A stretch of 64,000 nt of DNA from Aquificaceae bacterium (lineage in GTDB: Bacteria > Aquificota > Aquificia > Aquificales > Aquificaceae): contig JAXSMZ010000005.1 of the NCBI GenBank assembly GCA_037924335.1, positions 1-64,000 of the forward strand, written 5' to 3'. The translations under genes were made by a program, and so were the position numbers. The first letter of the stretch is position 1. Every line of letters starts with the position of its first letter. Below, piece after piece: positions 14,371 through 53,157 of the stretch. Under the pieces are notes generated by a model. The model was given only the letters and a program-made list of their open reading frames with translations. It ran no database searches and was not told the origin of the DNA.

Positions 14371-16665
14371 CTACTTTATTACAACCCTCACTACTTTATC
14401 GTCCTCCAAAGCCCATCTTTTTTTTGCCTTGTGCTCCCTTCTGGAGAGAAGCATTTCCTTCTGGTCTATCCTATCGTAAAAAACCTTTCCCATTTGCGTA
14501 GCAACCATGACCTCCGCAGACTCTTTTATGGGTATAAGGTCAACCAGATTACCTTTTGAAGAACCAAGCATATCCACCCCCTTTGTTCCTCTTCCCCTTG
14601 CAGATACCTCATCCACAGAGACTTTTTTTATGCTCCCATCGTCGGTTATCACCAGAAGGTAGGGGAAGTCCTTGACTGCTCTTATCCCGTTTACCCAGTC
14701 TCCGCTTTCAAGCTTTATACCCATAACACCCTTTGAACCTGCAGTTGCTGGAGGAATCTGAGAGATCGGAAATCTAAGGGCTCTTCCACCGTATGTGAAT
14801 ATTATCAGGTCTCCATCCTCTGGGGATTGCAGAATTCTTACTACCTCATCTTCCTCCGCAGAAAACTTTATTATGGACATGCCTTGAGCCTTGTATTCAA
14901 AATCAGCCAAGGGTATCTTTTTAACATACCCCATCTTTGTAGCCAATATTATCCTATCGCTCGCAAGATGTCTAACAAAGGCACCTATTATCCTCTCATC
15001 GCTCTCCTTAAAGGATACTTTGCTTCCATGCAATGCCTGGGAGCCTGCTATCCAGTATACCTTCCCTCTGTTGGATACCATAAAAAGACCTTCGCTGAAT
15101 GGTACATCCAGTATGTTGACCACTTCTCCCTCACCGTTTGCCTCCACAAGAGGAGATACCTTCCCATTTGCGTACACAACAACCATAAGCGATCCTACTT
15201 CCTCTGTCCTATCAATGTCTGAGATAAAGCTTCTCCTTGGATGCTGGAATGCTTTGGATATTTCCTCCGTTTCTTCTATGAACACCTTTATCCTCTCTTC
15301 CTCACTTTCTATGAGCTTTTTGTAATACTCTATCTTTTTAATAAGCTCCTTTTCTTCTTCCTCCAGCTTTGTTCTTTCAAGGGAAGTAAGCCTTTGTAGT
15401 CTCATGTCCAACACTGCGTTGGCTTGCTTGTCACTAAGGGAGTAATTTTTCATAAGCCTTTCCTTTGCCTCTGCGGTATCCTTGGACCCTTTTATGTCAT
15501 TTATAACTCTGTCCAAGTTCCCAAGGGCTACTATGAGACCCTGAACTGTATGAAACCTCTCCTCGGCTTTTGCCAGATGATACTTAGACCTCCTTAGGAT
15601 AACGTTGAGTCTATGCTTTATGAACTCGCTCAAAATCCTCTTAATGCCAACCCTTTTTGGCTCGTTGTCTATAAGCACTACAAAGTTGAGGGGGAAGTTC
15701 TTCCTCAACGCTGTGTATCTGTACAGCTTTTCCAAAGTTTTCTGAGTATCTGCTTCGCGCTTCAACTCCACAACTATCCTCACACCCTCCTTATCCGATT
15801 CATCCCTTATGTCGGATATCTCTTTTATTTTCCCCTCTCTTGCCAGCTCTGCCATTCGTTTTATAAGCTCAGACTTGTTCACCTGGTAGGGTATCTCTGT
15901 TATCACTATCTGTTCCCTTCCACCCTGAAGCTTTTCTGTATGGGCCTTTGCCCTTATCCTCACGTACCCCTTCCCAGTCTCATAAAACTCCTTTAGTTCT
16001 TTACCATTCTCTATGATCCCTCCAGTTGGGAAATCTGGTCCCTTTATGTGTTTCATTATCTCTTCCACGCTCATGTTTGGGTTCTTTGCCAGCTCTTTAA
16101 GGGCTGAGCAGACTTCTTTTACGTTGTGCGATGGTATGGATGTAGCAAGCCCAACGGCTATGCCAGTGCTTCCGTTGCAAAGCATGTTAGGAAACTTAGA
16201 AGGCAAAACAGAGGGTTCTAATGTGGAATTGTCAAAATTAGGAACAAAATCCACCGTTTCGTAATCTATATCTTCAAGGAGCTTCAAGGCTACCTTTGAC
16301 AGTTTTGCCTCTGAATATCTCATGGCTGCTGGCGGGTCACCATCTATGGAGCCAAAGTTCCCCTGTCCTATTATCATGCAGTAGCCCATGTTGAAGTCTT
16401 GAGCCATACGCACCAGAGTATCGTAAACAGCTTGATCGCCATGGGGATGATAATAACCGAGAACTGTACCAACGATCCTTGCACTCTTTACAAAGGGCTT
16501 ATCTGGCATAAGTCCCATTTGGTACATGGCATAGAGAATTCTTCTTTGGACAGGCTTTAGACCATCCCTCACGTCTGGGATGGCACGCCCGACTATGACT
16601 GACATAGCATAGTCTATATAAGATTGCTTTACTTCCTCTTCTATTGGTACTGTGATGATCTCCAT
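14371..16665 (-). CDS. gyrA: Type IIA topoisomerase subunit A (GyrA/ParC)
   Basis: [29 protein letters not shown] catalytic Tyr, beta-pinwheel CTD. Confidence 0.9.
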
Positions 16666-16691
16666 TTTTCTTTGTTAATATTATAACACAA

Positions 16692-17963
16692 CTAAAAGGT
16701 AAGTCCAATTCTGGAGAGCTTCCTTTCGAGCAAAGCTTTAGCTCTCGAGCGTACTACTGGATACCTATGGTTTGCCAGTATCCTTAGAGTCTCCAAAGCT
16801 TCAGGATGGGACATCTTTATCAAAGCATCAGCCAATGCCATGAGTACAATAGGGTCGGCCTCCCTTCTGACCATGTGCTCAAGGTGAGGTAAAGCCATTG
16901 CAAGATCTTTTTTACCAATTGTATGTATGACGTTTAATCTCATCTCTCTTATGGGATGTTCTAAAGCCATGATGAGTTTGTACTCGTATGGCATGTTATG
17001 AAACTCGTTAAGGTTGTATCCACAGTTTGGACAAACCACATCTTTTTGAGATATAACACTCCAGCATGCTGGACAGAAGTATGTAATGGGCAATTGGTCA
17101 TCCGCTCTTAGAATCCTTAGCTTGCTGTCTTCCTTACCGTAGTCTTCTGGGTTTATAAAATGGAAAGACTTTATAATCTCCTTAGCTGCGTAAACTTCAA
17201 AGAGTGGTGCCTTTTCATCAAAGGAATCTACAAACAAAACCTTATCACCCAAATACACTTTGTATCCATAATCGTTCAGGGATACGCTAACTAGGAACAA
17301 GAAAGCGTCAGAATGTGCATTGGAGAATTTCCTTGCAAACTTTTCAGTTTCTTCCACAGTATGCAAAGTACCTATAAGTTTCAAATTGGAAAGAAGAAGA
17401 CTCAGCACGATAGGGTTAAGTTCGTACAAGTCAAAAAGACAGGAATCTCCTGTAAGGCTTGTAAAAAGCTCTTCAAAAGCTTCGCTGCCTTTTTTATCCT
17501 TAAGCCTTGCATCTACAATAAGCCCCCCTTGTAAGAAAACATACCCTACTTCCCTCTTTATCCTGTTCTCTATTCTAATATAACCAGTTGTTTCAAAGTC
17601 TCTCAGTTTTCTGAAAAATTCCAAAAGGTTGAAGCCTAAACTCTCCATGTTTATCCATACTGTTTTCTGTCTCGATAGGGGAAGCCTTAGGTTTTCTTCC
17701 AGGTTGAAGAAGTGTATGAGTAAGTTCTCCGTAGTTCTGTAAAAGCTAAACATATCAAAATCTTCCCTTAGATTTCCTATAAGCCTACCCTCGAGTATAG
17801 GTTCCACATGTGTACTGTTCAACGATTGGAAAATATAAATACCCGATCGCATAGAAGAGCTATGTATTTCATGTATCCATGTTATATTGACTACTTCTCT
17901 GTTTAGCGGTCCAAGGGTAGGCTTTTCCCCTTTAATTAGGTAAAAGAGCTTTTCTCCCATCAA
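16692..17963 (-). CDS. Multidomain protein: DUF4388/PATAN-like, Zn-ribbon, HEAT repeats
   Basis: TGYIRIEN...GYVFLQGGLIVDA segment, CPACW-x9-CPNCG, C-terminal HEAT-like helical repeats. Confidence 0.65.
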   Translation of the reverse strand: MMGEKLFYLIKGEKPTLGPLNREVVNITWIHEIHSSSMRSGIYIFQSLNSTHVEPILEGRLIGNLREDFDMFSFYRTTENLLIHFFNLEENLRLPLSRQKTVWINMESLGFNLLEFFRKLRDFETTGYIRIENRIKREVGYVFLQGGLIVDARLKDKKGSEAFEELFTSLTGDSCLFDLYELNPIVLSLLLSNLKLIGTLHTVEETEKFARKFSNAHSDAFLFLVSVSLNDYGYKVYLGDKVLFVDSFDEKAPLFEVYAAKEIIKSFHFINPEDYGKEDSKLRILRADDQLPITYFCPACWSVISQKDVVCPNCGYNLNEFHNMPYEYKLIMALEHPIREMRLNVIHTIGKKDLAMALPHLEHMVRREADPIVLMALADALIKMSHPEALETLRILANHRYPVVRSRAKALLERKLSRIGLTF

Positions 17964-18462
17964 TGGCTACCTTCAGGGCTTCTTTGAAAGTATCAATTAC
18001 ACCTATACCTTCTTTTGCCACTGCCGGAACTAAAGTGTACATGTTGAAAAATCTCTCTACCTCCTCAAAGGGTATTGGATTCTTTGAGTCCCTTTTGTTT
18101 GCCTGCACTACTATGGGAATCTTTAAGTTTCTTATTTCCTCAAAGGCTTCTAAGTTCTCACGAAGGCTTCTTGAAGAATCTAATACAAAAACAATAGCAT
18201 CCACGTGACCAAAGAACCATGGCCTTATTGTGGAGAACCTTTTCTGCCCTGGCGTTGTGAACAAGGATACAAAAAGCTCATCATTGTTCGTCTTTACCCT
18301 AAGCTTTAGCACGAGAACATCCAGGTAAACTGTTCTTCCTTCCTCAGTTTGCTGATGGAATCTGTCATAAATGTGGTCGCTAAACATTTCTTTGAGTTTT
18401 TCCAAGTTTGTTGTTTTACCCGCCATGCCAAGCCCATGGTAGAGTATTCGCAGCTCTTTCAT
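17932..18462 (-). CDS. mglA: MglA-like small GTPase
   Basis: GLGMAGKTTNL, RTVYLD switch I, TTPGQ, NKRD. Confidence 0.85.
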   Translation of the reverse strand: MKELRILYHGLGMAGKTTNLEKLKEMFSDHIYDRFHQQTEEGRTVYLDVLVLKLRVKTNNDELFVSLFTTPGQKRFSTIRPWFFGHVDAIVFVLDSSRSLRENLEAFEEIRNLKIPIVVQANKRDSKNPIPFEEVERFFNMYTLVPAVAKEGIGVIDTFKEALKVAIDGRKALLPN

Positions 18463-18911
18463 ATTGCGATATCCTCAAGCCTTATGGTAAGGCTCTCTTT
18501 CCCCCTTGAAACGGCTTTGTCAAGGGTTGAGGATATACTATGAGCAAGCTTTTCCATAAAAAGCCTTACGCTGCCCAAAGGTGTTTTGTTGGAGAAAAAG
18601 GTAAACAGCAGGAATTGGTGTTGGGTTATGATAAGATACACGCTTTTTGTGGTGCCAGATACAAAAAGGTGCCTTCCACGGTCTATAAAATTATCTAGAT
18701 AATCAAGCGCACCGTTGACTGCCGCCGATATAACAGAGCTTCTCAAGGCAAAGGGTTTTACTGTGTCCAACTGTGGTGCAAAGGTTACAACTCTTCCACC
18801 AGCATCCGAGAGAACAACAAGTTCCACGCTTAAGTTTCTCGCAAAATTTTCAAGGCACTTGCTTAGCTCCTCTATTTCCTCTTGAAGAAACTTGTAAGAT
18901 ACAACATCCAT
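18459..18911 (-). CDS. mglB: Roadblock/LC7 protein (MglB-like)
   Basis: VVLSDAGGRVV, TPLGSVRL; overlaps mglA start; GGAGGAGG RBS. Confidence 0.8.
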   Translation of the reverse strand: MDVVSYKFLQEEIEELSKCLENFARNLSVELVVLSDAGGRVVTFAPQLDTVKPFALRSSVISAAVNGALDYLDNFIDRGRHLFVSGTTKSVYLIITQHQFLLFTFFSNKTPLGSVRLFMEKLAHSISSTLDKAVSRGKESLTIRLEDIAI

Positions 18912-18946: not shown

Positions 18947-18963
18947 ATTAAGAATCTGTTAAG
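18947..18963 (-). promoter_or_regulatory. CTTAAC-N5-CTTAAT direct-repeat box upstream of mglB
   Basis: Minus strand CTTAACagattCTTAAT, 10 bp, then TAAATT. Confidence 0.6.
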
Positions 18964-19139
18964 GAGAACTGAAGTTGTTGAAAAAAACCATTATGGTAAA
19001 ATTACGCAAGATGCTAACTCCTGAAAAGGGCAGTTCATTAACTGCATGTGCAGGGTTTGTGGAGAGACCCGAGAAGGTCATTAGTTTCTGTTTCAAGGGA
19101 CAGAGGCGATAGTTTATTCTTTACACACCCTGAGGAGAA

Positions 19140-19156
19140 CTTAACCAAATCTTAAC
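19140..19156 (+). promoter_or_regulatory. CTTAAC-N5-CTTAAC direct-repeat box upstream of fez-like operon
   Basis: CTTAACcaaatCTTAAC 23 bp before first ORF. Confidence 0.6.
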
Positions 19157-19179
19157 AGTAGGCTCTTTAAATATATAAA

Positions 19180-19554
19180 GTGATGATTGAATATGTGTCC
19201 AAGAGGGAAGAAGAGGTAAGACTACTCTTTAGCACAAAGGAGGGGAGGGACCTCTTTTCCAATGCCATACGAAAAATAAATGGGGTCATAAGCGTTGATT
19301 ACAAACAGAGCACAAAGGCTGTTACCGTCAAGTACAGAAAGGACACTCCAGCAAGTCTAATTTTGGAACACATAGAGCCTAAAAGGCTCGATAGGTTGGA
19401 TAGGACAGATGTTCACTTCTATATTTTTCCCTTTTTAAAACACCCTGCTGTTAAGCTCGCCTTCAGCATGCTTATGCTAGGTAGCATATCTGGTATTGTG
19501 GTTTTTGGTGTTTGTTCTCTTTTCCTTGTTCCTTACTTAAAAACAAAGCTTTAG
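19180..19554 (+). CDS. HMA-like domain membrane protein with GxxxG (FezC-like)
   Basis: INGVISVDYKQSTKAVTVKY HMA-like fold without CxxC; C-terminal TM LGSISG. Confidence 0.6.
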   Translation: MMIEYVSKREEEVRLLFSTKEGRDLFSNAIRKINGVISVDYKQSTKAVTVKYRKDTPASLILEHIEPKRLDRLDRTDVHFYIFPFLKHPAVKLAFSMLMLGSISGIVVFGVCSLFLVPYLKTKL

Positions 19555-19564
19555 GAGGTGTTAG

Positions 19565-19873
19565 ATGTTTAACATACCACTCAGGATTGGTGGATGCTTA
19601 TCCACTAACATGATGTTTTACGGTGTCGGTACTCTTGCAGGATTGGTAGTGATCAACAAGCTATTAAGGGATTCAAAGCCCTTTCTCGTTGCCGCTGCAA
19701 AAGAAACCATAGCCTTCCAACAATGGGTATCTGGTAATTTGGAGGAGAGTAAAGAGTTTTGGGAAGATGTGTTCTCTGAGGCAAGGCACGCATACAGAAT
19801 GGAGGTGGAGAAAAAGCTTCAGGTTCTTCAAAAACAACAAGAGATACTTCAGAAAATAAAGGAAAAGCTATAA
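19565..19873 (+). CDS. Small GxxxG membrane/coiled-coil protein (FezA/DUF5132-like)
   Basis: GVGTLAG TM, KPFLVAAAKE, EFWEDVFSEAR; AGGAGG RBS. Confidence 0.6.
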   Translation: MFNIPLRIGGCLSTNMMFYGVGTLAGLVVINKLLRDSKPFLVAAAKETIAFQQWVSGNLEESKEFWEDVFSEARHAYRMEVEKKLQVLQKQQEILQKIKEKL

Positions 19874-19879
19874 AGGAGG

Positions 19880-20089
19880 ATGAATATGAACGGAATAGGA
19901 TCTATAGTTGGTAGGATCTTCTGTTCCGGACCTTTCAGTTTTGCCTTGGGTTTTGGTGTAGGGGTTTTTGCCCTGTACCTTTTGGAGAGAGCCAAGGAGA
20001 AAAAAAGGTTTGAAGAAACTTACAAGGAAACGGAAGCTCTTTTGAAAGCCTTAGAGGTAAAGGTAAAAGAAGAAGGAAAGGAAGCCTGA
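19880..20089 (+). CDS. Small GxxxG membrane protein
   Basis: FALGFGVGVFALY TM then charged helix; AAGGAGG RBS. Confidence 0.6.
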   Translation: MNMNGIGSIVGRIFCSGPFSFALGFGVGVFALYLLERAKEKKRFEETYKETEALLKALEVKVKEEGKEA

Positions 20090-20090
20090 T

Positions 20091-22163
20091 ATGCCCATAC
20101 CGTATAAGATAAAGAGGCTCTCTTACGGAAAGATAACAGTAAGCTCTTATCTTTTAAGACATCCAGTCCTTGGAAAAGATACTGTGGAAGAATACTTTCT
20201 TAGGTTTAATGGCGTAATAAAAGTCAGGTGCAGGAAGAGCAGCGGGAGCCTTACCTTGGAGTACAACCCAGACACTTTCAACCTTATAGAATTTATCAAC
20301 TTCTTGGAAAGTAGCTCCCTTGAACTCTTTCTTGAGGAGCTCTCCAAGCGCAGTGTAGAAAAAAAGCAGGCTAAAAGAACAAGCTGGCTATGGTTTACAT
20401 TAGCCGGGTTTGTACCCTATCTTTTCAGGTCTTTTTTCCCAAATCCATTGCTGAGTATCATGACCCTCTCCCTCTCTTTCCCTGTTTTTAAAAAGGCTTT
20501 TAGCTCGCTAAAGGCAAGAAGGCTTGACGTTCATTTCCTTGACTCTGCTGCCATACTCACATCTACCTTTTCAGGAAACCCTCTGACGTCACATATCATG
20601 ATCTTCCTTCTCTCAGTTGGTGATTACATGGAGGATAAAATAGAGAAAAAAGCGTACAGTCAGATAGAAAAACTGCTAAGCTACGAAGAGGACCATGCAT
20701 GGCTAATGGTAGATAACGGGCAAGGCGTTAAAGTGAGAGCCAACGAGCTCAAAAGAGGAGACCTTATAGTGGTTTATGCTAGTGAGAAGATATCTGCAGA
20801 TGGAAGGGTTGTGGAGGGGGAGGCTTTGGTAAATCAAGCATCCTTAACTGGTGAATCCAACCCAGTCCTTAAAAAATTTGGAGATAAGGTATATGCAGGA
20901 ACTTTTGTGGAGGATGGTAAGCTGTACGTTAGGGTGGAAGAGGTGGGAAATGAGACGGTGCTTGCCAAGATAGTCAACATAATTGAAAACAGCGTCAAAG
21001 AGCCCATAAGCATACAGAAAAAGGCTGAATACCTAGCCAACAGGTTTGTTACTCCAACACTCCTTTTGGGTGGCCTTTCTTACCTTACAAGTGGGCAAAC
21101 GAACAGGCTAACAGCCACTCTTATAATGGACTATCACACAGGTATACACCTTGCAACACCACTTAGTGTTATGTTCCATATAGCTCAAGCGGCAAATTTA
21201 GGGATCCTCATAAAAAGCGGCAGTAAACTGGAAGCTCTATCGAGAGTGGATACTGTGGTAATAGACAAAACCGGAACCCTTACAGTAGGACAACCAAGGG
21301 TTACTGACATAGTTGGTCTTGGTATGGAAAAGGATGATGTTCTGCTCTATGGAGCATCCCTTGAACAAAGGATAACCCACCCTGTAGCGAAAGCTCTTGT
21401 AATGCTTGCTAAAGAGAGAGGCATGGAACTCATTCCAAGAGAAAACTCTAAGTACCACATAGGGCTTGGTATAGAGGGATACCTAAATGGTGTACCTTTT
21501 ATGCTTGGTAGCACAAGGTTCATGCAGAAGAAGAGGATAAGGATAAGCCAGGAGATAAAAGACCTTGTTGACAGGTTTCATTCAGAATCCAAGTCTGTAC
21601 TTTACTTGGTAAGAGAAAGGCATGTCATTGGATTGTTTGCCTTTACTGACCCTCTAAGGGAAGAGGCAGTGGATGTGGTAAAAGAACTGGAAAGAAGGGG
21701 TAAAAGAGTGGTTTTATGCACTGGGGACAATGAGGGAGCAGCCAAATACATAGCCATGAAGCTTGGAATGGATGAGTACTATGCCAGAGCTTTTCCAGAA
21801 GAGAAGGCTAAGATAGTTCAGAAAATGAGGGGGGAGGGAAGGGTTGTGGCTTTTGTTGGAGACGGTGTTAACGATTCACCAGCCTTATCTTCAGCAGATG
21901 TAGGCATATCCCTAAGGGGTGGGACAGACATAGCTATAGAGCTTGCGGATGTAGTTATAGGTGATAGCTTATGGTACATTCTTGACGCTGTAGATATAGC
22001 CGATAAAGCCATGAGCAAACTGAGGAGAATATATCAGGTCAATGCCTTTACAAACACTGTTGGGCTTTTAGGCTCTTTGTTGGGTCTTTTCAGACCAAGC
22101 ATTTCCACTTTAATAAACAATGGTACCACTGTGTTCTTAGGTTTTTATGCCATAAAAAAGTAG
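20091..22163 (+). CDS. Heavy-metal P1B-type ATPase, P1B-6/FezB-like
   Basis: TGES, DKTGTLT, HP, GDGVNDSPALS; TM4 DYHTG instead of CPx; Cys-less HMA-like N-terminus. Confidence 0.88.
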   Translation: MPIPYKIKRLSYGKITVSSYLLRHPVLGKDTVEEYFLRFNGVIKVRCRKSSGSLTLEYNPDTFNLIEFINFLESSSLELFLEELSKRSVEKKQAKRTSWLWFTLAGFVPYLFRSFFPNPLLSIMTLSLSFPVFKKAFSSLKARRLDVHFLDSAAILTSTFSGNPLTSHIMIFLLSVGDYMEDKIEKKAYSQIEKLLSYEEDHAWLMVDNGQGVKVRANELKRGDLIVVYASEKISADGRVVEGEALVNQASLTGESNPVLKKFGDKVYAGTFVEDGKLYVRVEEVGNETVLAKIVNIIENSVKEPISIQKKAEYLANRFVTPTLLLGGLSYLTSGQTNRLTATLIMDYHTGIHLATPLSVMFHIAQAANLGILIKSGSKLEALSRVDTVVIDKTGTLTVGQPRVTDIVGLGMEKDDVLLYGASLEQRITHPVAKALVMLAKERGMELIPRENSKYHIGLGIEGYLNGVPFMLGSTRFMQKKRIRISQEIKDLVDRFHSESKSVLYLVRERHVIGLFAFTDPLREEAVDVVKELERRGKRVVLCTGDNEGAAKYIAMKLGMDEYYARAFPEEKAKIVQKMRGEGRVVAFVGDGVNDSPALSSADVGISLRGGTDIAIELADVVIGDSLWYILDAVDIADKAMSKLRRIYQVNAFTNTVGLLGSLLGLFRPSISTLINNGTTVFLGFYAIKK

Positions 22164-22179
22164 AAAGGAGGTAAAAAAA

Positions 22180-22275
22180 ATGGAAGAGAAGAACATTTAC
22201 CAGGAGCTTGAAGAACTTAAAAAGAAGATAGGTAGCACAGAAGAGAAAAGCATAAAAGCCATGAGAGAAAAATAG
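22180..22275 (+). CDS. 31-aa charged coiled-coil peptide (not in ORF track)
   Basis: AAGGAGGT RBS, ATG 22180, MEEKNIYQELEELKKKIGSTEEKSIKAMREK*. Confidence 0.55.
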   Translation: MEEKNIYQELEELKKKIGSTEEKSIKAMREK

Positions 22276-22292
22276 GAGGAAAAGCCCGAAAA

Positions 22293-22550
22293 ATGAAGTT
22301 TGTAAGAACAAGGAGCGGAAGATTTCTCAACGTTCTTCATATGATATCCCTTTCTGTGGAAGAGACCAGGATAGAGATAGATGGAAAAAAGAGGTTGGTT
22401 TATAAGCTCATAGCGCATATGAGCCAGCCTCTTCTTCCCGCCGTCCTTGGCATATATTCTACAGAAGATAAAGCCTACGCTATACTAGAAGACACAGTTA
22501 GAAGACTTTCTGGAGATGAAAGGATAGTAAGCGTTGAGAGTGAGTTCTGA
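22293..22550 (+). CDS. Hypothetical protein
   Basis: AGGAGG RBS upstream, in operon order. Confidence 0.6.
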   Translation: MKFVRTRSGRFLNVLHMISLSVEETRIEIDGKKRLVYKLIAHMSQPLLPAVLGIYSTEDKAYAILEDTVRRLSGDERIVSVESEF

Positions 22551-22875
22551 AGACCTCCTTACAAACTTGAAAACCATTATCCACAGGATAAACTGCGAGC
22601 ATAAGAAGATACTTGAAAGGTTAGATAAGAATATGCTATTGATAGTCCATATGCCTGACAATAAGGAAGTCCACCTTTCCATAGACAGCGACGGTGTAAA
22701 GTATTTGGAAAAACCCGTGTGTGTTGAAAGCGTTGTAAAGATCGGTTACAGAGACCTCATGCGTCTTATCGATGATCCGTCCAAAGCTGTTAGATACCTG
22801 CTCCAAGGGAGGATCCTTATTAAGGGAGACCTAAGTCTGATAGAAAAGCTTATGAGTATTATAGGATCCTATTGA
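22534..22875 (+). CDS. SCP2 sterol/lipid-binding domain protein
   Basis: DLMRLI...AVRYLLQGRILIKGDLSL resembles SCP2 C-terminal motif. Confidence 0.7.
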   Translation: MRVSSEDLLTNLKTIIHRINCEHKKILERLDKNMLLIVHMPDNKEVHLSIDSDGVKYLEKPVCVESVVKIGYRDLMRLIDDPSKAVRYLLQGRILIKGDLSLIEKLMSIIGSY

Positions 22876-23065
22876 TAGCCCTAGTCATCAGGTTTTCAAG
22901 TATGCCACCGATCACAAAGGATTCTATAAGTATAGTCTTGTCCTTCCCCGTTAGGAAAGTATCCCTTTCTCTTTTCCTTACCCTGTCTCCCTTCTTTAAG
23001 TATCTCCTGTACTCTTCAATGCGTCTTTCTACACTCTCCATCAGCTCATCTATTCTCTTTTCCAT
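22859..23065 (-). CDS. Small basic hypothetical protein
   Basis: ATG ORF with its own box plus -10 promoter directly upstream. Confidence 0.55.
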   Translation of the reverse strand: MEKRIDELMESVERRIEEYRRYLKKGDRVRKRERDTFLTGKDKTILIESFVIGGILENLMTRAINRIL

Positions 23066-23089
23066 AGACTGATATGTTAAAGCTTCAAT

Positions 23090-23106
23090 GTTAAGATTTC
23101 ATTAAG
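23090..23106 (-). promoter_or_regulatory. CTTAAT-N5-CTTAAC direct-repeat box
   Basis: Minus strand CTTAATgaaatCTTAAC, 10 bp, TAACAT, 8 bp, ATG 23065. Confidence 0.55.
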
Positions 23107-23495
23107 AAGATGCACATGTTTTCTTTGTGAGGAAAGTCGTACATGACATTTTGATAAAAAGATTCTATCTTTCCAAAGCACAGCCAGCAAAAAGCATGCT
23201 CCATAGGTCTTAGCCCCGAATGTTCTATGAGACTTCTAAAGTAACAGTTGGAGACTATAACTTTATTGTCTTTTTTTGATAGCTCATCATGTACAGGTTC
23301 TATCTTCTTAGCCAACGCCCTGAGTATGGGAGCAACGACTCCTACGCCAAACATCTCTTGTAGTTTTTGTACAGTGTAGAAGATCTTTTCTCTTTCATCT
23401 TTGCCCTCAAATTCCTTTGCAACCCTTTCGACTATGAGGCTTAAACCTCTTCCAGCATAGATTTCTAACTCTTTTATAAATTCCTCCAATCTCAT
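23091..23495 (-). CDS. Hypothetical Cys-containing protein (V4R/ligand-binding-like)
   Basis: NCYF...FCWLCFG...CIF Cys pattern. Confidence 0.55.
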   Translation of the reverse strand: MRLEEFIKELEIYAGRGLSLIVERVAKEFEGKDEREKIFYTVQKLQEMFGVGVVAPILRALAKKIEPVHDELSKKDNKVIVSNCYFRSLIEHSGLRPMEHAFCWLCFGKIESFYQNVMYDFPHKENMCIFLMKS

Positions 23496-23932
23496 ACCTC
23501 TATGTTTGGGGAGTATTTTACAACTACCACTCGCATTACAGATAGAACAAGAAGGATAAGACTGAAAGATACAGCCCTTTCCAGATTTAGCTTTCCTGAA
23601 TACATGATCATTATCATCTCTCTTAGCATAAAGGAGATAGAAGCGTCTACAAGAAAGGTAAGCTTGACTCTTCTATACTCAAAGATGCTCAAAATTGCTC
23701 TTAAAAGCTCATATAGAATGATTACCTCAAGTACCTTTACAGTTACTTCCTTTATCACATACTGTGATGTAATGTTTCCTGAAGCTAAAAATTCTTTAAA
23801 AGCCAACAGAAGGCTAAAAGCGATCAAAAAGTACATGAATATTTCTACAGAGAGATGGAAGAAGCGTGAAGGTCTAATTTTATCTGCATACCTGTTCACC
23901 CACAAGACTGTAAACCTCCAATAACTTTTCAA
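23492..23932 (-). CDS. Phosphate-starvation-inducible PsiE family membrane protein (start uncertain)
   Basis: Four TM helices, IILYELLRAI..F, LVDASISFMLRE. Confidence 0.75.
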   Translation of the reverse strand: MKSYWRFTVLWVNRYADKIRPSRFFHLSVEIFMYFLIAFSLLLAFKEFLASGNITSQYVIKEVTVKVLEVIILYELLRAILSIFEYRRVKLTFLVDASISFMLREMIMIMYSGKLNLERAVSFSLILLVLSVMRVVVVKYSPNIEV

Positions 23933-24995
23933 AACACCTCTCCCATGAAAAGTTTTCCCTTATATAAGAGCTTACTTTTTCCCTCATGAAGAAGCTTTGG
24001 GCATTTGCTGCCTTCACAAGAGCGTCGTAAAAGCTCTCTGTATTCGGCCTTTTTACCAAAAAGTCCTTAAAGGGTTGAGTTTCCAAACCTAGGTCCGGTG
24101 CCACAAGCAGACATCCACACGCCTGAGCTTCCAAAAAGGAAAGCCCATAGGTTTCCGATGTGGATGCGGATATGTAGACATCACAACTTGCGTAGATTTT
24201 GGAAAGATCCTCTTCCTTTTGTATGTAACCCAAATAACTAACGTTGGGGCGCTTTTGGGCAAACTTCTCAACCCTTCCCCTGAGCGGTCCATCTCCAACT
24301 ATCAAAAAATGAAAAAAGGCAGGGTCCATGATGTCTATTACCTCAAGAAGTATGTCTATCCTCTTCTCCGGTGAGAGTCTCCCAGCGTATACTACCTTGA
24401 AGTTGTAATCCTTGATGCCAAGCATTCTGCCAAGGTAGTGGTCTCTTTTGGACGTGTTAAACACATTCGTATCAACTCCCAAGTTCACAGTTTGAACCTT
24501 TTCAAACCCGTTTTGTCTCAAAAACTCCTCCTGTCTTGTGGATGGTGTTATGATAAGGTTGGCAAGTGAAAGCCTTTTGGTGAGAGTAAAGTCAATGAGT
24601 TTCTCCTTTAGCTTTTCTGGAATGGGTAATAATGAAGCATCGGTTCTCACATCAGCATGGTAAAAGACTATGATCTTATACCTTTCTGACCTGAAGTGTG
24701 TTATGGGAATATAAGTTCCACCAAGCTCCACCACGTTAGGCTTTTCCATGTTAAGTATTTCTTTTATGTCTTTGAAGCTTCCAAAAAACCTGTAGCCACC
24801 GCTCATGGGTATGGGGAAGGATGGAATCTGATAAACCTTTGTGGACCCAATCCTGTAAACCTTTCTCTCTTTACCAGGTATGATAAGAACATGCTCTATG
24901 TCTTTACCATCCAAATACTTGACCTTCTCTAAGAGGTATCTTCTTATGCCACCGCTTTTACTGTGAAAGTATGGAGTTATATCAACGAGTTTCAT
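23880..24995 (-). CDS. GT4 family glycosyltransferase
   Basis: SGGIRRYL, YAGRLSPEK, ETYGLSFLEAQACG. Confidence 0.9.
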   Translation of the reverse strand: MKLVDITPYFHSKSGGIRRYLLEKVKYLDGKDIEHVLIIPGKERKVYRIGSTKVYQIPSFPIPMSGGYRFFGSFKDIKEILNMEKPNVVELGGTYIPITHFRSERYKIIVFYHADVRTDASLLPIPEKLKEKLIDFTLTKRLSLANLIITPSTRQEEFLRQNGFEKVQTVNLGVDTNVFNTSKRDHYLGRMLGIKDYNFKVVYAGRLSPEKRIDILLEVIDIMDPAFFHFLIVGDGPLRGRVEKFAQKRPNVSYLGYIQKEEDLSKIYASCDVYISASTSETYGLSFLEAQACGCLLVAPDLGLETQPFKDFLVKRPNTESFYDALVKAANAQSFFMREKVSSYIRENFSWERCFEKLLEVYSLVGEQVCR

Positions 24996-27228
24996 AGACA
25001 AGCCTCCCAAAGCCAGCTATGGCGTTCATATAGTCTATGTAAGTTTTTCTCATATCAAGCTCTTGAGCTTTCTTAAAAGCTTCAAAAGATATCCTTCTTC
25101 GCAAGTTATCGTCGAGGAAAAGTAGGGATACCTTGTTTACAAACTCCTCAGGCTTTGTGGCTATAAGACCGTTTACACCATCTTGAATGTGCTCATGAGC
25201 TCCACCCTTTGAACTCACTATAACGGGAAGCCCGCTTGCCATTGCTTCGAGAACTACCTGTGCGTATGTGTCTGTTTCTGATGGAAATAAGAATATGTGG
25301 GAGCTAGCGTAGGCCTTGGCTAACTCCTCTCCCTTCATGTAACCCACAAAATGTACGTTTTTTGGCTTTTTCCTTTCTAGCTCTTCCCTGTAAGGACCGT
25401 CACCTACTATCACAAAGTGTTCTTCTGGGAAAGCTCTTGCAACGTACATAAAGCTGTCCAATCCCTTCTCCTTTGCAACCCTCCCAACGTAAAGAATGAC
25501 CTTTGAATCCCTCCTTATACCGAGCCTGTTACCCCAAAAGTTCTCTTCCCTCTTGTAAGGGGAGAAGAGCTCAGCATCAACGCCTCGTCTAAAAAGGCTG
25601 AGTTTAGAGTAGGAGACACCTTTGTTTGAAAGCAGTTTTCTGTAATGTTCCGAAGGCACAAAACATCTGTCGCAGCTGTTCATAAGAAGTTCAAAGGCCT
25701 TCCATAGAAACTCCTCTAAGTTCTCGTCCCTTGTGTAACTCTTTGCATAGCTTGGAACGTCCGTATGGAAGGTAAAGGTTACCCTGAGGTTTAAGAGTTT
25801 CCCGGCAAGGAATGCCATGAGGCCTAGGGGTCCGGGTGATGCTATATGCAGGTTGGTAAAACCCTTTTTTTCTATAAAATCTACAAGCTCCAAGAAGGAA
25901 GGGACACCCATCCTAAGCTCTTCATAAAAAGGCACTGGTATGCGGAAGTTTGCTCTAAGGGATACAAGGTTTCCATCCTTGAACCCCTCCTCTGTACATA
26001 TGACAAAGGTATAAGGCATATCTTCCTCCTGAGCTATCTTTCTCATGATTTTAGCTGTTCGTGCAACACCGTTGATCTCCTCGTAAGTATCTGTAAAGTA
26101 GGCAACCTTCACAGGCTTTGCCGTATCTATGCCAAACTCCGCAGAAAGGGACCTTATCTTCTCCTCTTCTCTCCTTTGGGCGTGTTTTAAAAAGGCGGGC
26201 AGGATGTGGAGGATAAAAGATAGAACCACTTCTCCCACCCCTTGGAGGGATTGCCTTTGTACAAACCTTCTCAGAGAAAAGAAGGGTAAGTTATTTAGGA
26301 TGTTTTTCAAAAGTTCTTGCCTTTCACCGTTTACACCTAGGGCGTACTTTAGCATCATACCCACAGCAGGGTTGTCAGAGTACATGAAAATATAGTCAAG
26401 AAAAGGTCTAATTTCAAAAGGAATGGTATATCTGCTCTGTATGTGGTCGTATCCCACTTTAGCGACTATGTTGAGAATCCGTTCGTAGCCAAGCTTTTCT
26501 GTACCCGTATCAGTCTTCCCTTCCCAAAGTCCCATAAGGAAGCTCTGTACATCCTTTGCATCTTTTACAACAGTCCATGTTCTCCCCACATCCATTCCAC
26601 CATGGTCATCGGAACCTGCGGTAAAGCTTATCTTTGGTCTGCTCCTCAAAGTTCTTATCTTGTATTTTTCCTCCAACTGATTTATCTTCTCCCATCCATC
26701 GTACATGCGTGCTATTGACTCTTCTATGTGGCTTACACCGTTTCCCCTCGTCCCATTTATCACCTCCCAGTTATCAAAAAGCAGAATCATCTTTTCTGTA
26801 AGTCTCTTTGTAATCTTTGTCCCCTGTACTGAATAAAGTGGATGGGCAAGAGTATGGGGTATCTTGTACTGCTTTAGATAGCTTACAAACTCGTAAACGT
26901 TGCCCCTTAGTTTGGAAAGCTCCTCATGGTCCTTTTGGCTTATCCCGTAAGCTATAACGTGTACCATTGCAAGCTCTTCTGGAAACTCTACTGTGTACTC
27001 GCAGCTTATAAAAACATCTGGCAGATGAGCGATTTCCAGCACACCCTCTATGGTGTTGTGGTCTGTTATAGTCACAAAATCCATACCCCTCTCTTTCAGC
27101 CTCTTGTATATATCCATAGGATCGGCATAGCTTTCTGGACAACCTATTAGCTTGCTAAACCATCCACCCGGCAGGTTGGAAGCTTTGGAATGAAGGTGCA
27201 AGTCTGCTCTTGCTAAAAACTTCCTCAT
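24982..27228 (-). CDS. PHP-domain + GT4 glycosyltransferase fusion
   Basis: DLHLHS, TITDHN, AHP, AGSDDH; NGVART, YVGRVAKEK, DTYAQVVLEAMASG. Confidence 0.9.
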   Translation of the reverse strand: MRKFLARADLHLHSKASNLPGGWFSKLIGCPESYADPMDIYKRLKERGMDFVTITDHNTIEGVLEIAHLPDVFISCEYTVEFPEELAMVHVIAYGISQKDHEELSKLRGNVYEFVSYLKQYKIPHTLAHPLYSVQGTKITKRLTEKMILLFDNWEVINGTRGNGVSHIEESIARMYDGWEKINQLEEKYKIRTLRSRPKISFTAGSDDHGGMDVGRTWTVVKDAKDVQSFLMGLWEGKTDTGTEKLGYERILNIVAKVGYDHIQSRYTIPFEIRPFLDYIFMYSDNPAVGMMLKYALGVNGERQELLKNILNNLPFFSLRRFVQRQSLQGVGEVVLSFILHILPAFLKHAQRREEEKIRSLSAEFGIDTAKPVKVAYFTDTYEEINGVARTAKIMRKIAQEEDMPYTFVICTEEGFKDGNLVSLRANFRIPVPFYEELRMGVPSFLELVDFIEKKGFTNLHIASPGPLGLMAFLAGKLLNLRVTFTFHTDVPSYAKSYTRDENLEEFLWKAFELLMNSCDRCFVPSEHYRKLLSNKGVSYSKLSLFRRGVDAELFSPYKREENFWGNRLGIRRDSKVILYVGRVAKEKGLDSFMYVARAFPEEHFVIVGDGPYREELERKKPKNVHFVGYMKGEELAKAYASSHIFLFPSETDTYAQVVLEAMASGLPVIVSSKGGAHEHIQDGVNGLIATKPEEFVNKVSLLFLDDNLRRRISFEAFKKAQELDMRKTYIDYMNAIAGFGRLVYETR

Positions 27229-27901
27229 AGCTTATTAACCTCCTTTGCTTTTTTGCTTTTGTGAGTATAAGCCTCCACAGCTTTACCTTTCTTGGGTCTT
27301 TGAAGTCTCTTGCATGAAGAGCAAAGCGAACAAGCTGCTTTCTCTCCAGAAGGCGTGAATAGAAAGCAACAAAGAACAAGCTCATGAAGGAAAGGATCTT
27401 TCTGTTGCTAAAGGTGATGCTATAAGATGGTATAACATCATCCGTTAAAAGGTCCTTGAAATAATTTCTGTATGCTACTCCCACAAACCCAAAGGAAAAC
27501 AGGACATCTTCTAGAAACTTGTTTCCTAACCAGGCAGGCGGAACAAAAAACTTCACTTCAATGTTCAAGCTGTGCATAACCTCAAGTGACTTTTCAACCT
27601 TTCTGTAGGTTTCTAAAAGGCTAGCCTTTTCAAACTCCCCCTCCCCATAGGTCCACAGAATGTTTGATAAGCTCTTTCTTCCTTTGTGGCTGTAACCGTG
27701 CAAAACTATCTCTCTCTTTAAAGACCTAAGGAGTTCTGCAAAGCTGTCCCTCTTGTAAAGGGGGAAAGCATCCCAAAAGTTGGGCACAACGAGGAGAGAG
27801 TACTTCTCTATCCTCAATCTCTCCAAAAGCTCAATGGCATAAACTACTTCATCGTAGTAAAAAGGGCTAACATCGTGTACTTCTATCAATCCCAGCTTCA
27901 T
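27155..27901 (-). CDS. DUF2334 / polysaccharide deacetylase-like protein
   Basis: EVHDVSP, LHGYSH, EGEF, FVPPAW, RFALH. Confidence 0.8.
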   Translation of the reverse strand: MKLGLIEVHDVSPFYYDEVVYAIELLERLRIEKYSLLVVPNFWDAFPLYKRDSFAELLRSLKREIVLHGYSHKGRKSLSNILWTYGEGEFEKASLLETYRKVEKSLEVMHSLNIEVKFFVPPAWLGNKFLEDVLFSFGFVGVAYRNYFKDLLTDDVIPSYSITFSNRKILSFMSLFFVAFYSRLLERKQLVRFALHARDFKDPRKVKLWRLILTKAKKQRRLISYEEVFSKSRLAPSFQSFQPAGWMV

Positions 27902-27924
27902 ACCAAAAAGGATAGGTACGTTGC

Positions 27925-27963
27925 CTTAATTTTTTATTAAGATTCAGTTAAGAAAGTGTTAAC
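27925..27963 (-). promoter_or_regulatory. Four TTAA repeats at 11-bp period (Pho-box-like array)
   Basis: TTAA at 27926, 27937, 27948, 27959; minus strand GTTAAC-N5-CTTAAC-N5-CTTAAT-N5-ATTAAG, 10 bp, TATCCT, 7 bp, ATG. Confidence 0.7.
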
Positions 27964-50968: not shown

Positions 50969-52180
50969 ATGCAAGAGAGTGTCTTTAGCAGTATAGAGGA
51001 AGCCATTGAGGATATAAAGAACGGTAAGATGGTTATAGTTGTGGATGACCCTAGTAGGGAGAACGAAGGTGACCTTGTGATGGCAGCTGAAAAAGTCACT
51101 CCAGAGGCTATAAATTTTATGGCAAAGCATGGGAGGGGTCTCATATGCCTTACGCTCACACCGGAGAGATGCGAAGAGCTAGACCTTCATCCTATGGCTA
51201 TGAGGAACACGGACCCAAAGGGAACTTATTTCTGTGTATCCATAGATGCACACCCTAAGTTTGGAACAACAACCGGAATATCGGCTTACGATAGGGCTAA
51301 AACTGTAATGTTAGCCATAAGCCCAGAAGCAAAACCTTCAGATTTCATAAGACCTGGGCATGTTTTTCCCTTAAGGTCAAAGCCCGGTGGTGTCCTAGAG
51401 AGAGCTGGGCACACAGAGGCGTCTGTTGACCTTGCAAAGCTTGCAGGTCTTTATCCAGCAGGTGTCATATGTGAGATAATGAAGGATGATGGTACGATGG
51501 CAAGGCTTCCAGACCTTGAAGAGTTTGCCAAAAAATTCGGGCTCAAGATAGTGACCATAGCGGACCTTATAAGGTACAGACTGAAAAGAGATAAGCTTGT
51601 TGTCAGAGAGGCAACAGCTAACCTTCCTACAAGATACGGCTTCTTTAAAATACACGCTTACAAACACGTGCTGACTGGAGAAGAGCAGGTAGCTTTGACC
51701 GTAGGAGAATGGAAGGAAGATGAACCCGTGCTTGTCAGGGTTCACTCTGAGTGTTTGACTGGAGATGTTTTTAAGTCTCTAAGATGCGATTGCAGAGGCC
51801 AATTAGAAGCAGCACTTGAGATAATAGCAAGGGAAGGTAAAGGTGTTCTTGTATACATAATGGGGCATGAAGGAAGGGGTATTGGTATAGTCAACAAGAT
51901 AAAAGCTTACAACTTACAGGATAAGGGCTACGATACTGTAGAGGCTAACGAAAAGGTAGGCTACCCAGCAGACCTTAGAGACTACGGTGTTGGTGTTCAG
52001 ATACTTTTAGACCTTGGCGTTAGAAAAATGAGACTTCTTACAAACAATCCAAGGAAGATAGTGGCTCTTGAAGGCTATGGATTGGAGGTTACGGAGGTAG
52101 TTCCTTTAAGGATAGAACCAAATCCTTACAACAGACTCTATCTGGAAACAAAGAAGACTAAGCTTGGTCATAAGCTATGA
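50969..52180 (+). CDS. ribBA: Bifunctional DHBP synthase / GTP cyclohydrolase II
   Basis: [38 protein letters not shown]. Confidence 0.96.
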
Positions 52181-53157
52181 GGTAAGTAAACCTTAAAGGT
52201 GCTACCAAGACCCTTTACACTTTCCACTTCCACCTTCCCACCGTGGGAGAGAGCTATGTGCTTTACTATAGAAAGTCCTAAGCCAGTACCCCCCATTTCT
52301 TTACTCCTTGACCTTTCAACCATATAAAACCTTTCAAAGATGAAAGGTATGTGCTCCTTAGGAATACCTATACCGGTGTCCTTCACCTCTATAACCGCGT
52401 AGTTATCCTGGGTGTATGCTCTCACTTCTACGCTTCCCTCCTCTCTGTTATACTTTATGGCGTTATCCACAAGGTTTAAAAGAAGAAGGATGAGTTTATC
52501 TTCATCTGCATAAACTTTAAGATGTTCATCCACAGAGTTTATCAATCTTACGTTGCGACCTTTGGCAATATCCCTAAGAACATCAAAGACAACGTCAACG
52601 TTTTCCCTCAATAGTAGCTCCCTTTTATGTAATTTCTCCTCTCCAGATTCGAGCTTTGCTATGATCAGAAGGTCTTCCACAAGGTTTTTCATCTCTTCTG
52701 TTCTCTTTAGAGCCCTCTCCAAAAGCTTTTTTTTATCCTGGTTCCTTTCCTCTTCTAGGAGCGTCTCAAGTATGCTCTTTATAACAGCTATGGGTGTTTT
52801 CAGTTCATGGGATACGTTTGCTACAAACTCCTTCTTTGACCTTTCGTACCTTTTAATCTGAGTTATATCTGTGAGCTTGACCAGAACCTCATTTCCTGCT
52901 GGGAAGACCTCCACAGCATACTCAACCTCTCCGTGCTCGAAGAATCTTTTTATCCTCTTTTGTTCGTTTATGGCCTCTGCCAGAGCCGATATGAGGCTAA
53001 GAAGGTTTAATCCTTCATAATAAGACTTATTCTCATAATTTCCCTTTAGAACCCCCTTTTTTATAAGAAAATCGTTGGCATAAATTATTTTTCCTTCCTG
53101 GTTTACAACCATATAACCTTCATTTACGTTTTTTAAAAACTCACTCAGTGCACCCAT
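52168..53157 (-). CDS. PhoR-like histidine kinase (PAS-HisKA-HATPase, no TM)
   Basis: [40 protein letters not shown]. Confidence 0.85.

Follow-up and report, generated by a model that had tools for sequence, protein, structure and literature searches.

Why do four neighboring operons, encoding a putative polarity GTPase module, a metal-type ATPase cluster, a conserved 68-aa protein and a set of glycosyltransferases, carry the same tandem repeat in front of them? This question is raised by a 64,000-nucleotide stretch of an Aquificaceae genome (GCA_037924335.1, contig JAXSMZ010000005.1; G000:C5:1-64000), here called the window, for which an initial annotation made from the sequence alone had proposed a hidden regulon responding to phosphate or iron. 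The genome under study (G000; 1.53 Mb, 42% G+C) was analyzed within a comparison set of 61 Aquificota genomes, labelled G000 onward. Named relatives of its proteins belong to Aquificaceae and Hydrogenothermaceae, with homologues in Hydrogenobacter thermophilus, Thermocrinis and Sulfurihydrogenibium. Related genomes share ancestry and conservation counts are therefore not independent. The motif is most likely the Pho box of Aquificota and thus a new instance of a known system, and the four boxes very probably represent binding sites of a PhoB-type phosphate-starvation regulator that would co-activate pstSCAB, phoU, a porin, a lipid operon, MglBA and the ATPase operon. The unexpected part would be the conserved phosphate wiring of an ATPase cluster related to FezB and of the MglBA module.

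The four boxes and their promoters

All four sites were confirmed at the coordinates and on the strands initially given. The box preceding mglB (18947-18963, minus strand) consists of two CTTAAY units at an 11-bp period and is followed by the -10 hexamer TAAATT at 18936-18931, while the box preceding the P1B-ATPase operon (19140-19156, plus strand) is followed by TTAAAT at +10. The box in front of the 68-aa open reading frame (ORF; 23090-23106, minus strand) has its -10 hexamer TAACAT at 23079-23074, with the ATG 8 nt on; it overlaps the last codons of a 134-aa ORF and is kept in orthologues without such an overlapping ORF. A four-unit array (27925-27963, minus strand; GTTAAC, CTTAAC, CTTAAT and ATTAAG at an 11-bp period) precedes the DUF2334-glycosyltransferase-psiE operon, with the -10 hexamer TATCCT at 27914-27909 and the ATG 7 nt on. 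It is thus true that a TANNNT hexamer lies 10 bp after the last repeat in three of the four cases, the exception being 19140. Orthologues of this box show TATAAT, TACAAT or TAAGAT at the same position, and the hexamer departs from TANNNT in G000 and G006.

As had been implied for these promoters, the repeat exceeds random expectation. YTTAAY-N5-YTTAAY is found four times in the window against 0.41 expected, a count reached in 0 of 100 shuffles. Genome-wide, CTTAAY-N5-CTTAAY occurs seven times at N5 and zero to two times at each of 15 other spacers (0-15), with the looser Y pattern yielding 10 matches at N5 and 0-7 at other spacers. In intergenic DNA, where two window sites were masked out by overlapping ORF calls, enrichment was seen for the C pattern (3 observed, shuffle mean 0.275) and for matrix scores of at least 17 (4 versus 0.05 in shuffles), but not for the loose Y pattern by itself (3 versus a shuffle mean of 1.25, maximum 4, 40 shuffles).

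The spacing to the -10 hexamer is also constrained. Among 32 boxes hand-picked as promoter-proximal, with family-f3 arrays of unclear last unit left out, TANNNT begins exactly 10 bp past the last unit in 26, every other offset being used at most three times. This recurring gap supports the proposal that the box takes the place of the -35 element. At most ATPase, 68-aa and DUF2334 promoters only 7-9 bases separate the -10 hexamer from the ATG, and leaderless messages are suggested at these promoters because this distance is so short; for the 68-aa ORF and DUF2334 promoters of the window they are likely. Leaderless messages have been described as common in Aquificae (PMC3160421).

The phosphate genes and the candidate regulator

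A matrix built from the four window sites found its top genome-wide match at C1:189037, in front of a 76-aa gene and pstSCAB. The main scoring matrix was trained solely on 18 foreign boxes preceding pst operons in 18 other genomes. With this matrix, pstSCAB ranks first in G000 (24.1), followed by the four window sites at ranks 2 to 5 (ATPase operon, 24.0; mglB, 22.8; DUF2334 array, 21.0 at 27936; 68-aa ORF, 17.9), phoU at rank 6 (17.4), queA at rank 7 (16.7) and, at rank 8, an array of three to four units (15.4) preceding a phosphate-selective O/P (OprO/P) family porin (PF07396). Upstream scores of at least 17 are confined to 6 of 1673 G000 ORFs. A PstS-type match is present in 59 of 61 genomes, and 20 pst loci were hand-picked from these for genus spread. 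In 18 of the 20, a box deviating at no more than one position precedes the operon, compared with a G000 background of 17 out of 1567 ORFs; the remaining two loci score 14.5-15.1. The box precedes pst operons across three families and is also found at phoB-phoR (G012), psiE-phoB (G060), a TonB receptor-exbBD-tonB-phoD operon (G004) and an exbBD-tonB-phosphoesterase operon (G016, G025).

The iron genes of G000 differ in this respect. No box was found at feoAB, whose upstream scores range from -8.6 to -1.4, nor at the C14 TonB receptor, the only one checked (4.6). The phosphate half of the proposed signal is thus borne out by the boxed pst, phoU and porin genes, and the iron half, modelled on PmrA and BqsR, is not. 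Likewise, a single OmpR/PhoB-type regulator is supported, but the predicted regulon is not hidden, being an ordinary Pho regulon with unusual members. The assignment of 11-bp-period repeats to the OmpR/PhoB family also stands, as does the likeness to the cyanobacterial SphR Pho box in its TTAA core and 11-bp period.

Three side observations concern these loci. The queA site (G000:C27:5114-5130) is a three-unit box-like repeat abutting the start codon. By eye, the product of the 76-aa gene preceding pstSCAB (G000:C1:188766-188996) looks similar to the coiled part at the N terminus of the 430-aa porins encoded ahead of pstS in family f3. A different PstS type lies under the same box in G017, G026, G011 and others, which indicates replacement of the pst operon with its promoter kept.

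Boxes are retained at the orthologous promoters of each window target, and they persist although the genes have moved to different neighborhoods. The ATPase operon has a box scoring at least 17 in 14 of 16 orthologous loci from two families; in G050, G055 and G056 it stands before an added first gene, and in G056 the operon directly follows pstSCAB-phoU-phoR. Among 12 other mglBA loci, the box is direct in six and lies one gene upstream in G026, G017, G032 and G060, so that all 10 orthologous modules at 35% identity or more are boxed, the two distant paralogues (27%) being unboxed. In G017, G026 and G011, mglBA and the HEAT-repeat gene behind it are followed by one further gene and then pstSCAB. 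For the 68-aa ORF, 13 other loci were scored and all eight of family f1 reach at least 15; for DUF2334, 17 of 25 scorable loci (26 other loci, one without upstream DNA) reach at least 13. The 16 ATPase loci served as a control: of their 252 ORFs, 22 score at least 15. None of these is a housekeeping gene; apart from one ORF that faces a box, they are all window-type targets or belong to phosphatase operons.

Five OmpR-type regulators are encoded by G000. The one on contig C9 (G000:C9:35320-35994) shares 55% identity with the regulator preceding phoR-pstS in G012, compared with 41% for the next best G000 regulator. Of the 61 genomes, 56 contain exactly one copy of this type. Its gene is found no more than about 3.5 kb from pstS in G012, G029, G035, G052 and G060, and the protein has a nearly invariant recognition helix, RT[IV]DVH[IV]K (30 loci), which we take to resemble PhoB helices. 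The window itself encodes a PhoR-like histidine kinase of 329 aa (52168-53157, minus strand) with 44% identity to the kinase following pst-phoU in G056; its best NCBIfam models are PnpS and phoR_proteo, and its homologues adjoin phoB orthologues in 4 of 30 loci. Judged by orthology to pst-linked genes, both PhoB and PhoR are present in the genome, and the window kinase is likely the sensor of the regulon.

Based on established PhoBR biology, low phosphate would be sensed through PstSCAB-PhoU, upon which PhoR (52168-53157) would phosphorylate PhoB (G000:C9:35320-35994). PhoB would then bind the repeats head to tail at the -35 position and recruit sigma-70. More tentatively, the ATPase and its GxxxG scaffolds may move a divalent metal, Fe2+ being the likeliest, out of the cytosol, either through the membrane or into a compartment enclosed by one, with the loss of phosphate ligands that buffer metals as the possible trigger. 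The glycosyltransferases may alter membrane lipids and MglBA, together with the HEAT-repeat protein, may reset polarity or surface motility, both with similar reservation.

A number of observations weigh against this phosphate-starvation regulon. The motif alone does not name its regulator, because PmrA also recognizes CTTAAT-type units 5 bp apart (PMC3973317), and PHO boxes occur at genes without evident phosphate regulation (PMC4415409). The phoB and phoR genes of G000 have no box upstream, PhoB models are the best NCBIfam matches of the G012 orthologue of the C9 regulator yet score below cut-off, and the window kinase likewise falls below the curated cut-offs. Boxes are missing at the ATPase operon in G011 and G021, which belong to one genus, weak or missing at the 68-aa ORF in four of five family-f3 loci (13.6 in one, below 8 in four) and below threshold at eight DUF2334 loci, mostly distant orthologues. 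The ATPase also appears dispensable, because its operon is broken in G005 (L013:9684-11708) and deleted in G017 and G060, with the box left in place in both (L102:6999-7228 and L104:13744-14152) and a 62-aa stump retained in G017.

Three other explanations of the boxes were weighed. An iron- or metal-sensing regulator of the PmrA, BqsR or QseB type would fit a ferrosome-like target, and the PmrA box CTTAAG-N5-XTTAAT (PMC3973317) and BqsR box TTAAG-N6-TTAAG (PMC13522522) have the same period and core; moreover, the operon of a QseB/PmrA-like regulator in G000 (C1:63705) is itself preceded by a GTTAAT-N5-GTTAAT repeat. We consider such a regulator very unlikely, given that units in the pst-box matrix end in C or T and not in G, that the targets are pst, phoU, phoBR, phoD and a phosphate porin, and that feoAB and the C14 TonB receptor are unboxed, feoAB having a different operator. 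Just 9 of 61 genomes have a close orthologue of the C1:63705 regulator (at least 58%), and the complete, box-carrying genomes G015, G016, G025 and G030 yielded none; the mapping across genomes covered two of the five OmpR-type regulators, those at C1:63705 and on C9. Chance matches in AT-rich promoter DNA could account for the loose pattern not being enriched in intergenic DNA and for the reversed control pattern being as frequent as the pattern itself in AT-rich family-f3 genomes. However, this explanation is refuted by positional conservation at orthologous promoters despite rearrangement and by the fixed spacing to the -10 hexamer, and its probability is negligible.

The third possibility accepts a Pho box but has PhoB act as a repressor at certain targets such as the ATPase operon, or leaves some sites inert, with the consequence that no joint switch-on takes place. 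Boxes overlapping the -35 region can repress, as with BqsR (PMC13522522), the 19140 hexamer departs from TANNNT in the two genomes noted above, and building iron-phosphate granules under phosphate starvation would cost phosphate. Against this stand the 10-bp geometry shared with pstS by most ATPase promoters, the lack of an evident TTGACA-like -35 element beneath the boxes and a layout corresponding to class II activation as established for E. coli PhoB (PMC4415409), making repression or inert sites improbable. Co-activation by PhoB therefore remains the preferred reading.

Other potential operators were noted along the way. A GTTAAT-N5-GTTAAT repeat at G000:C1:64677-64693 (minus strand) precedes an operon of a periplasmic protein, a regulator and a kinase, adjoins a heavy-metal efflux cluster and may be that regulator's own site. 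The feoAB promoters of G000 (C1, about 93450-93475) and G022 (L031:2110-2140) have in common an operator-like stretch, TTTTGAGATTGTATMTTAAT, just after TTGACA, possibly an Aquificaceae iron-repressor site. Fur control of the ATPase promoters was considered and rejected, as a Fur consensus matches at 11-13 of 19 positions, equal to genome background.

The window targets

The ATPase operon starts with a 124-aa protein (19180-19554, plus strand, as is the entire operon) predicted to combine a small alpha/beta N-terminal domain with hydrophobic C-terminal helices containing GxxxG, a layout that appears FezC-like; a fold search with its model returned nothing at E<=0.001. It is followed by a 102-aa GxxxG and coiled-coil protein (19565-19873), classed as FezA/PacL-like. 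This protein resembles DUF6110, DUF5132 and DUF1490 clusters (0.87-0.90, to be read as leads), matches the DUF5132 profile at only E=0.06 and aligns with an annotated DUF5132 protein of a cyanobacterial DxxTG operon (hhalign 63.7%, E=6.7e-5). A 69-aa GxxxG membrane protein (19880-20089) represents a second scaffold-like gene. All three of these proteins carry GxxxG, and small GxxxG proteins are likewise encoded with the ATPase in fez clusters. The P1B-type ATPase itself (20091-22163) is followed by a 31-codon remnant of a coiled-coil gene (22180-22275; orthologues of 87-111 aa, paralogue on contig C30), a conserved 85-aa ORF (22293-22550) and a protein of the SCP2 lipid-carrier fold (22534-22875), the latter two forming the operon's tail. 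Close ATPase orthologues (E<1e-150) are found in 17 of 61 genomes, and genes for cation efflux of the CDF type follow the ATPase in four loci (G055, G016, G025, G031).

FezB is defined by the motifs D[Y/F]SCA and HNxxT (10.1101/2020.01.10.902569). In the window ATPase and its orthologues, the fourth transmembrane segment (TM4) instead contains DYHTG (DYNTN in genus g11) and the sixth (TM6) contains NNGxT, in 11 of 11 aligned orthologues, the window protein having NNGT. The N-terminal RxR region reads GRLRL or GRIRV in 4 of 11 orthologues and GKITV in the window ATPase. Relatives were collected as the best 150 profile matches among 1.84 billion representatives (152 rows kept after length filters, including added sequences), and these best matches form two groups, SCA/HN and D[YF]xTG/[NS]NG. 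A 31-row tree, with rows drawn at random per motif class and rooted on CPC-type ATPases, groups the Aquificota ATPases with the DxxTG clade (100/97), which has the SCA clade as its sister (100/99). The same DxxTG grouping was obtained in a 148-row FastTree (four very long rows dropped), in which 54 rows come from outside Aquificota, including cyanobacterial and Deinococcus proteins. Because the defining motifs are replaced and the protein falls into a sister clade, the ATPase is not a FezB member. It would work like a FezB-type pump from within an uncharacterized sister clade. This comparison is with FezB; large fez clusters encode a second ATPase, FezH, with a transmembrane motif of its own. 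Of the description as a ferrosome-like cluster, the FezA/PacL-like GxxxG partners hold, while the ATPase lacks the defining FezB motifs and lies outside the FezB clade. No Pho box was found at DxxTG operon starts in three cyanobacterial plasmid loci, one Deinococcus locus and two Arcobacter-family loci, so that the phosphate link is seen in Aquificota only, and the excerpts from the supplements of PMC1906773 and PMC11126600 contain no clearly matching heavy-metal ATPase.

Among the functions considered, the leading candidate, with a little less than an even chance, is that the pump rids the cytosol of a divalent metal, Fe2+ being the likeliest, as phosphate ligands become scarce. A phosphate-controlled pump could alternatively build a metal-phosphate granule that stores phosphate upon resupply in place of polyphosphate. 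Ferrosomes hold vivianite-like ferrous phosphate at about 1:1 Fe:P (10.64898/2026.06.16.732667), FezA-like scaffolds are encoded in the operon, and the polyphosphate kinase PPK1 was found in only 1 of 61 Aquificota genomes, with PPK2 above cut-off in none of the 61. Yet the FezB metal motifs are replaced, and because 44 of 61 genomes are without a close ATPase orthologue and, with one exception, without PPK1 too, the presence of the operon cannot be predicted from a lack of PPK; we regard this storage function as unlikely. The broader idea that the FezB-sister ATPase and GxxxG scaffolds build a PhoB-run metal-phosphate organelle, serving as either a mineral phosphate store or a metal sink, is doubtful, though hardly negligible. 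Delivery of metal to exported phosphatases is another conceivable role. PhoD-type enzymes need iron and calcium, and boxed PhoD or phosphoesterase operons adjoin the ATPase operon in G004, G016, G025 and G031. However, G000 has an intact ATPase and no PF09423 PhoD match, and such a role has a small probability.

Divergent from the ATPase operon, the mglB promoter serves an MglB-like roadblock protein of 150 aa (18459-18911, minus strand; NCBIfam NF052242, E=4e-7, below cut-off), an MglA-like small GTPase of 176 aa (17932-18462, minus strand; Pfam Arf/Ras/Roc) and a 423-aa protein with a zinc ribbon and HEAT repeats (16692-17963, minus strand), which follows mglBA in 11 of 11 close loci. The GTPase contains GxAGKTT, GRT, TTPGQ and NKRD, which we presume to be the MglA motifs. 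An EAL gene follows the MglBA-HEAT module in several relatives. In the window, a gyrA/parC gene begins 27 bp beyond the HEAT gene, with a TATAAT of its own in between (16665-16692); read-through from the mglB promoter is therefore not required.

The conserved 68-aa protein (22859-23065, minus strand) has its own box and belongs to no known family, an atlas search returning no usable match; 12 of the 14 genomes encoding it also have the ATPase. The last operon (23091-27901, minus strand) encodes a DUF2334 deacetylase (27155-27901), a PHP+GT4 protein (24982-27228), a GT4 glycosyltransferase (23880-25010), PsiE (23492-23932) and the 134-aa ORF (23091-23495). Its best NCBIfam models are of the GpgS (GlcN-PG synthase) and GpgD (deacetylase) types, with scores of 177 and 75 bits against cut-offs of 480 and 280. 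Pho regulons are known to remodel lipids when phosphate is limiting, and lipid remodelling is a likely role of this operon.

Comparison with known systems

The analysis provides a precise Pho box and a predicted regulon for a deep-branching thermophilic phylum as well as a first regulatory clue for the widespread, uncharacterized DxxTG/NNG clade of P1B ATPases beside FezB. Control of the ATPase operon apparently lies with phosphate, and polyphosphate kinase is all but missing from this lineage. If true, PhoB control of MglBA would couple polarity to nutrient sensing in these hot-spring bacteria, which form streamers. Among the top open-access matches listed (3-40), we found no described Aquificota Pho box, and the top matches listed likewise contained no report that phosphate controls ferrosome or DUF5132 ATPase genes or that MglAB is under PhoB, with absence unproven in each case.

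One close regulatory likeness is to the SphR/PhoB box of cyanobacteria, which has the same TTAA core and 11-bp period and precedes pst, phosphatase and porin genes (PMC1906773; PMC11126600). This box, CTTAACCT with a 3-bp linker (Su et al. 2007, PMC1906773), differs in needing three units, whereas Aquificota usually have two, formed by CTTAAC plus an A/T-rich linker. The cyanobacterial Pho regulon belongs to a different phylum, and the predicted targets in Aquificota extend to MglBA and a P1B ATPase operon; in Synechocystis, genes for iron uptake, chemotaxis and motility are reported to be under PhoB as well (PMC11126600). With E. coli PhoB and B. subtilis PhoP the Aquificota system shares 11-bp direct repeats, sigma-70 contact and the members pstSCAB, phoU, psiE and porin (PMC4415409). 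The E. coli consensus is CTGTCAT, however, and phoB and phoR of G000 are unlinked and unboxed.

The lipid operon recalls GpgS/GpgD-dependent GlcN-PG synthesis in Pseudomonas (PMC12713373), which also pairs a GT4 enzyme with a DUF2334-type deacetylase. It differs by scoring far below cut-offs, by an additional PHP+GT4 gene and psiE, and in that no flippase gene was seen in the operon; phosphate control is not mentioned in the passages of PMC12713373 considered here. In mycobacteria, PacL scaffolds serve the P1B-6-like ATPase CtpC in PacL-Ctp effluxosomes (PMC13460109), which similarly encode a DUF1490/DUF6110-like single-helix scaffold together with the ATPase. CtpC, however, has CPC and HN motifs and exports zinc, whereas the 102-aa protein of the window lacks the His-rich C-terminal metal motif and its operon has a phosphate-type box.

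Fez clusters (FezA, FezB, FezC; Grant and Komeili, 10.1101/2020.01.10.902569) share with the window operon an ATPase of the same P1B branch that has no CxxC metal-binding domain, together with small GxxxG proteins and one protein of FezC-like layout, alpha/beta domain plus membrane part; an N-terminal RxR occurs in several orthologues of the window ATPase, though not in the window protein itself. They differ by D[YF]SCA/HNxxT in FezB and by control through low iron and Fur, while the window operon combines DYHTG/NNGT and a sister-clade position with a Pho box in microaerophilic, thermophilic hosts. Ferrosomes are iron-phosphate minerals that have been studied as iron stores only, and a phosphate-controlled relative would open up their phosphate side.

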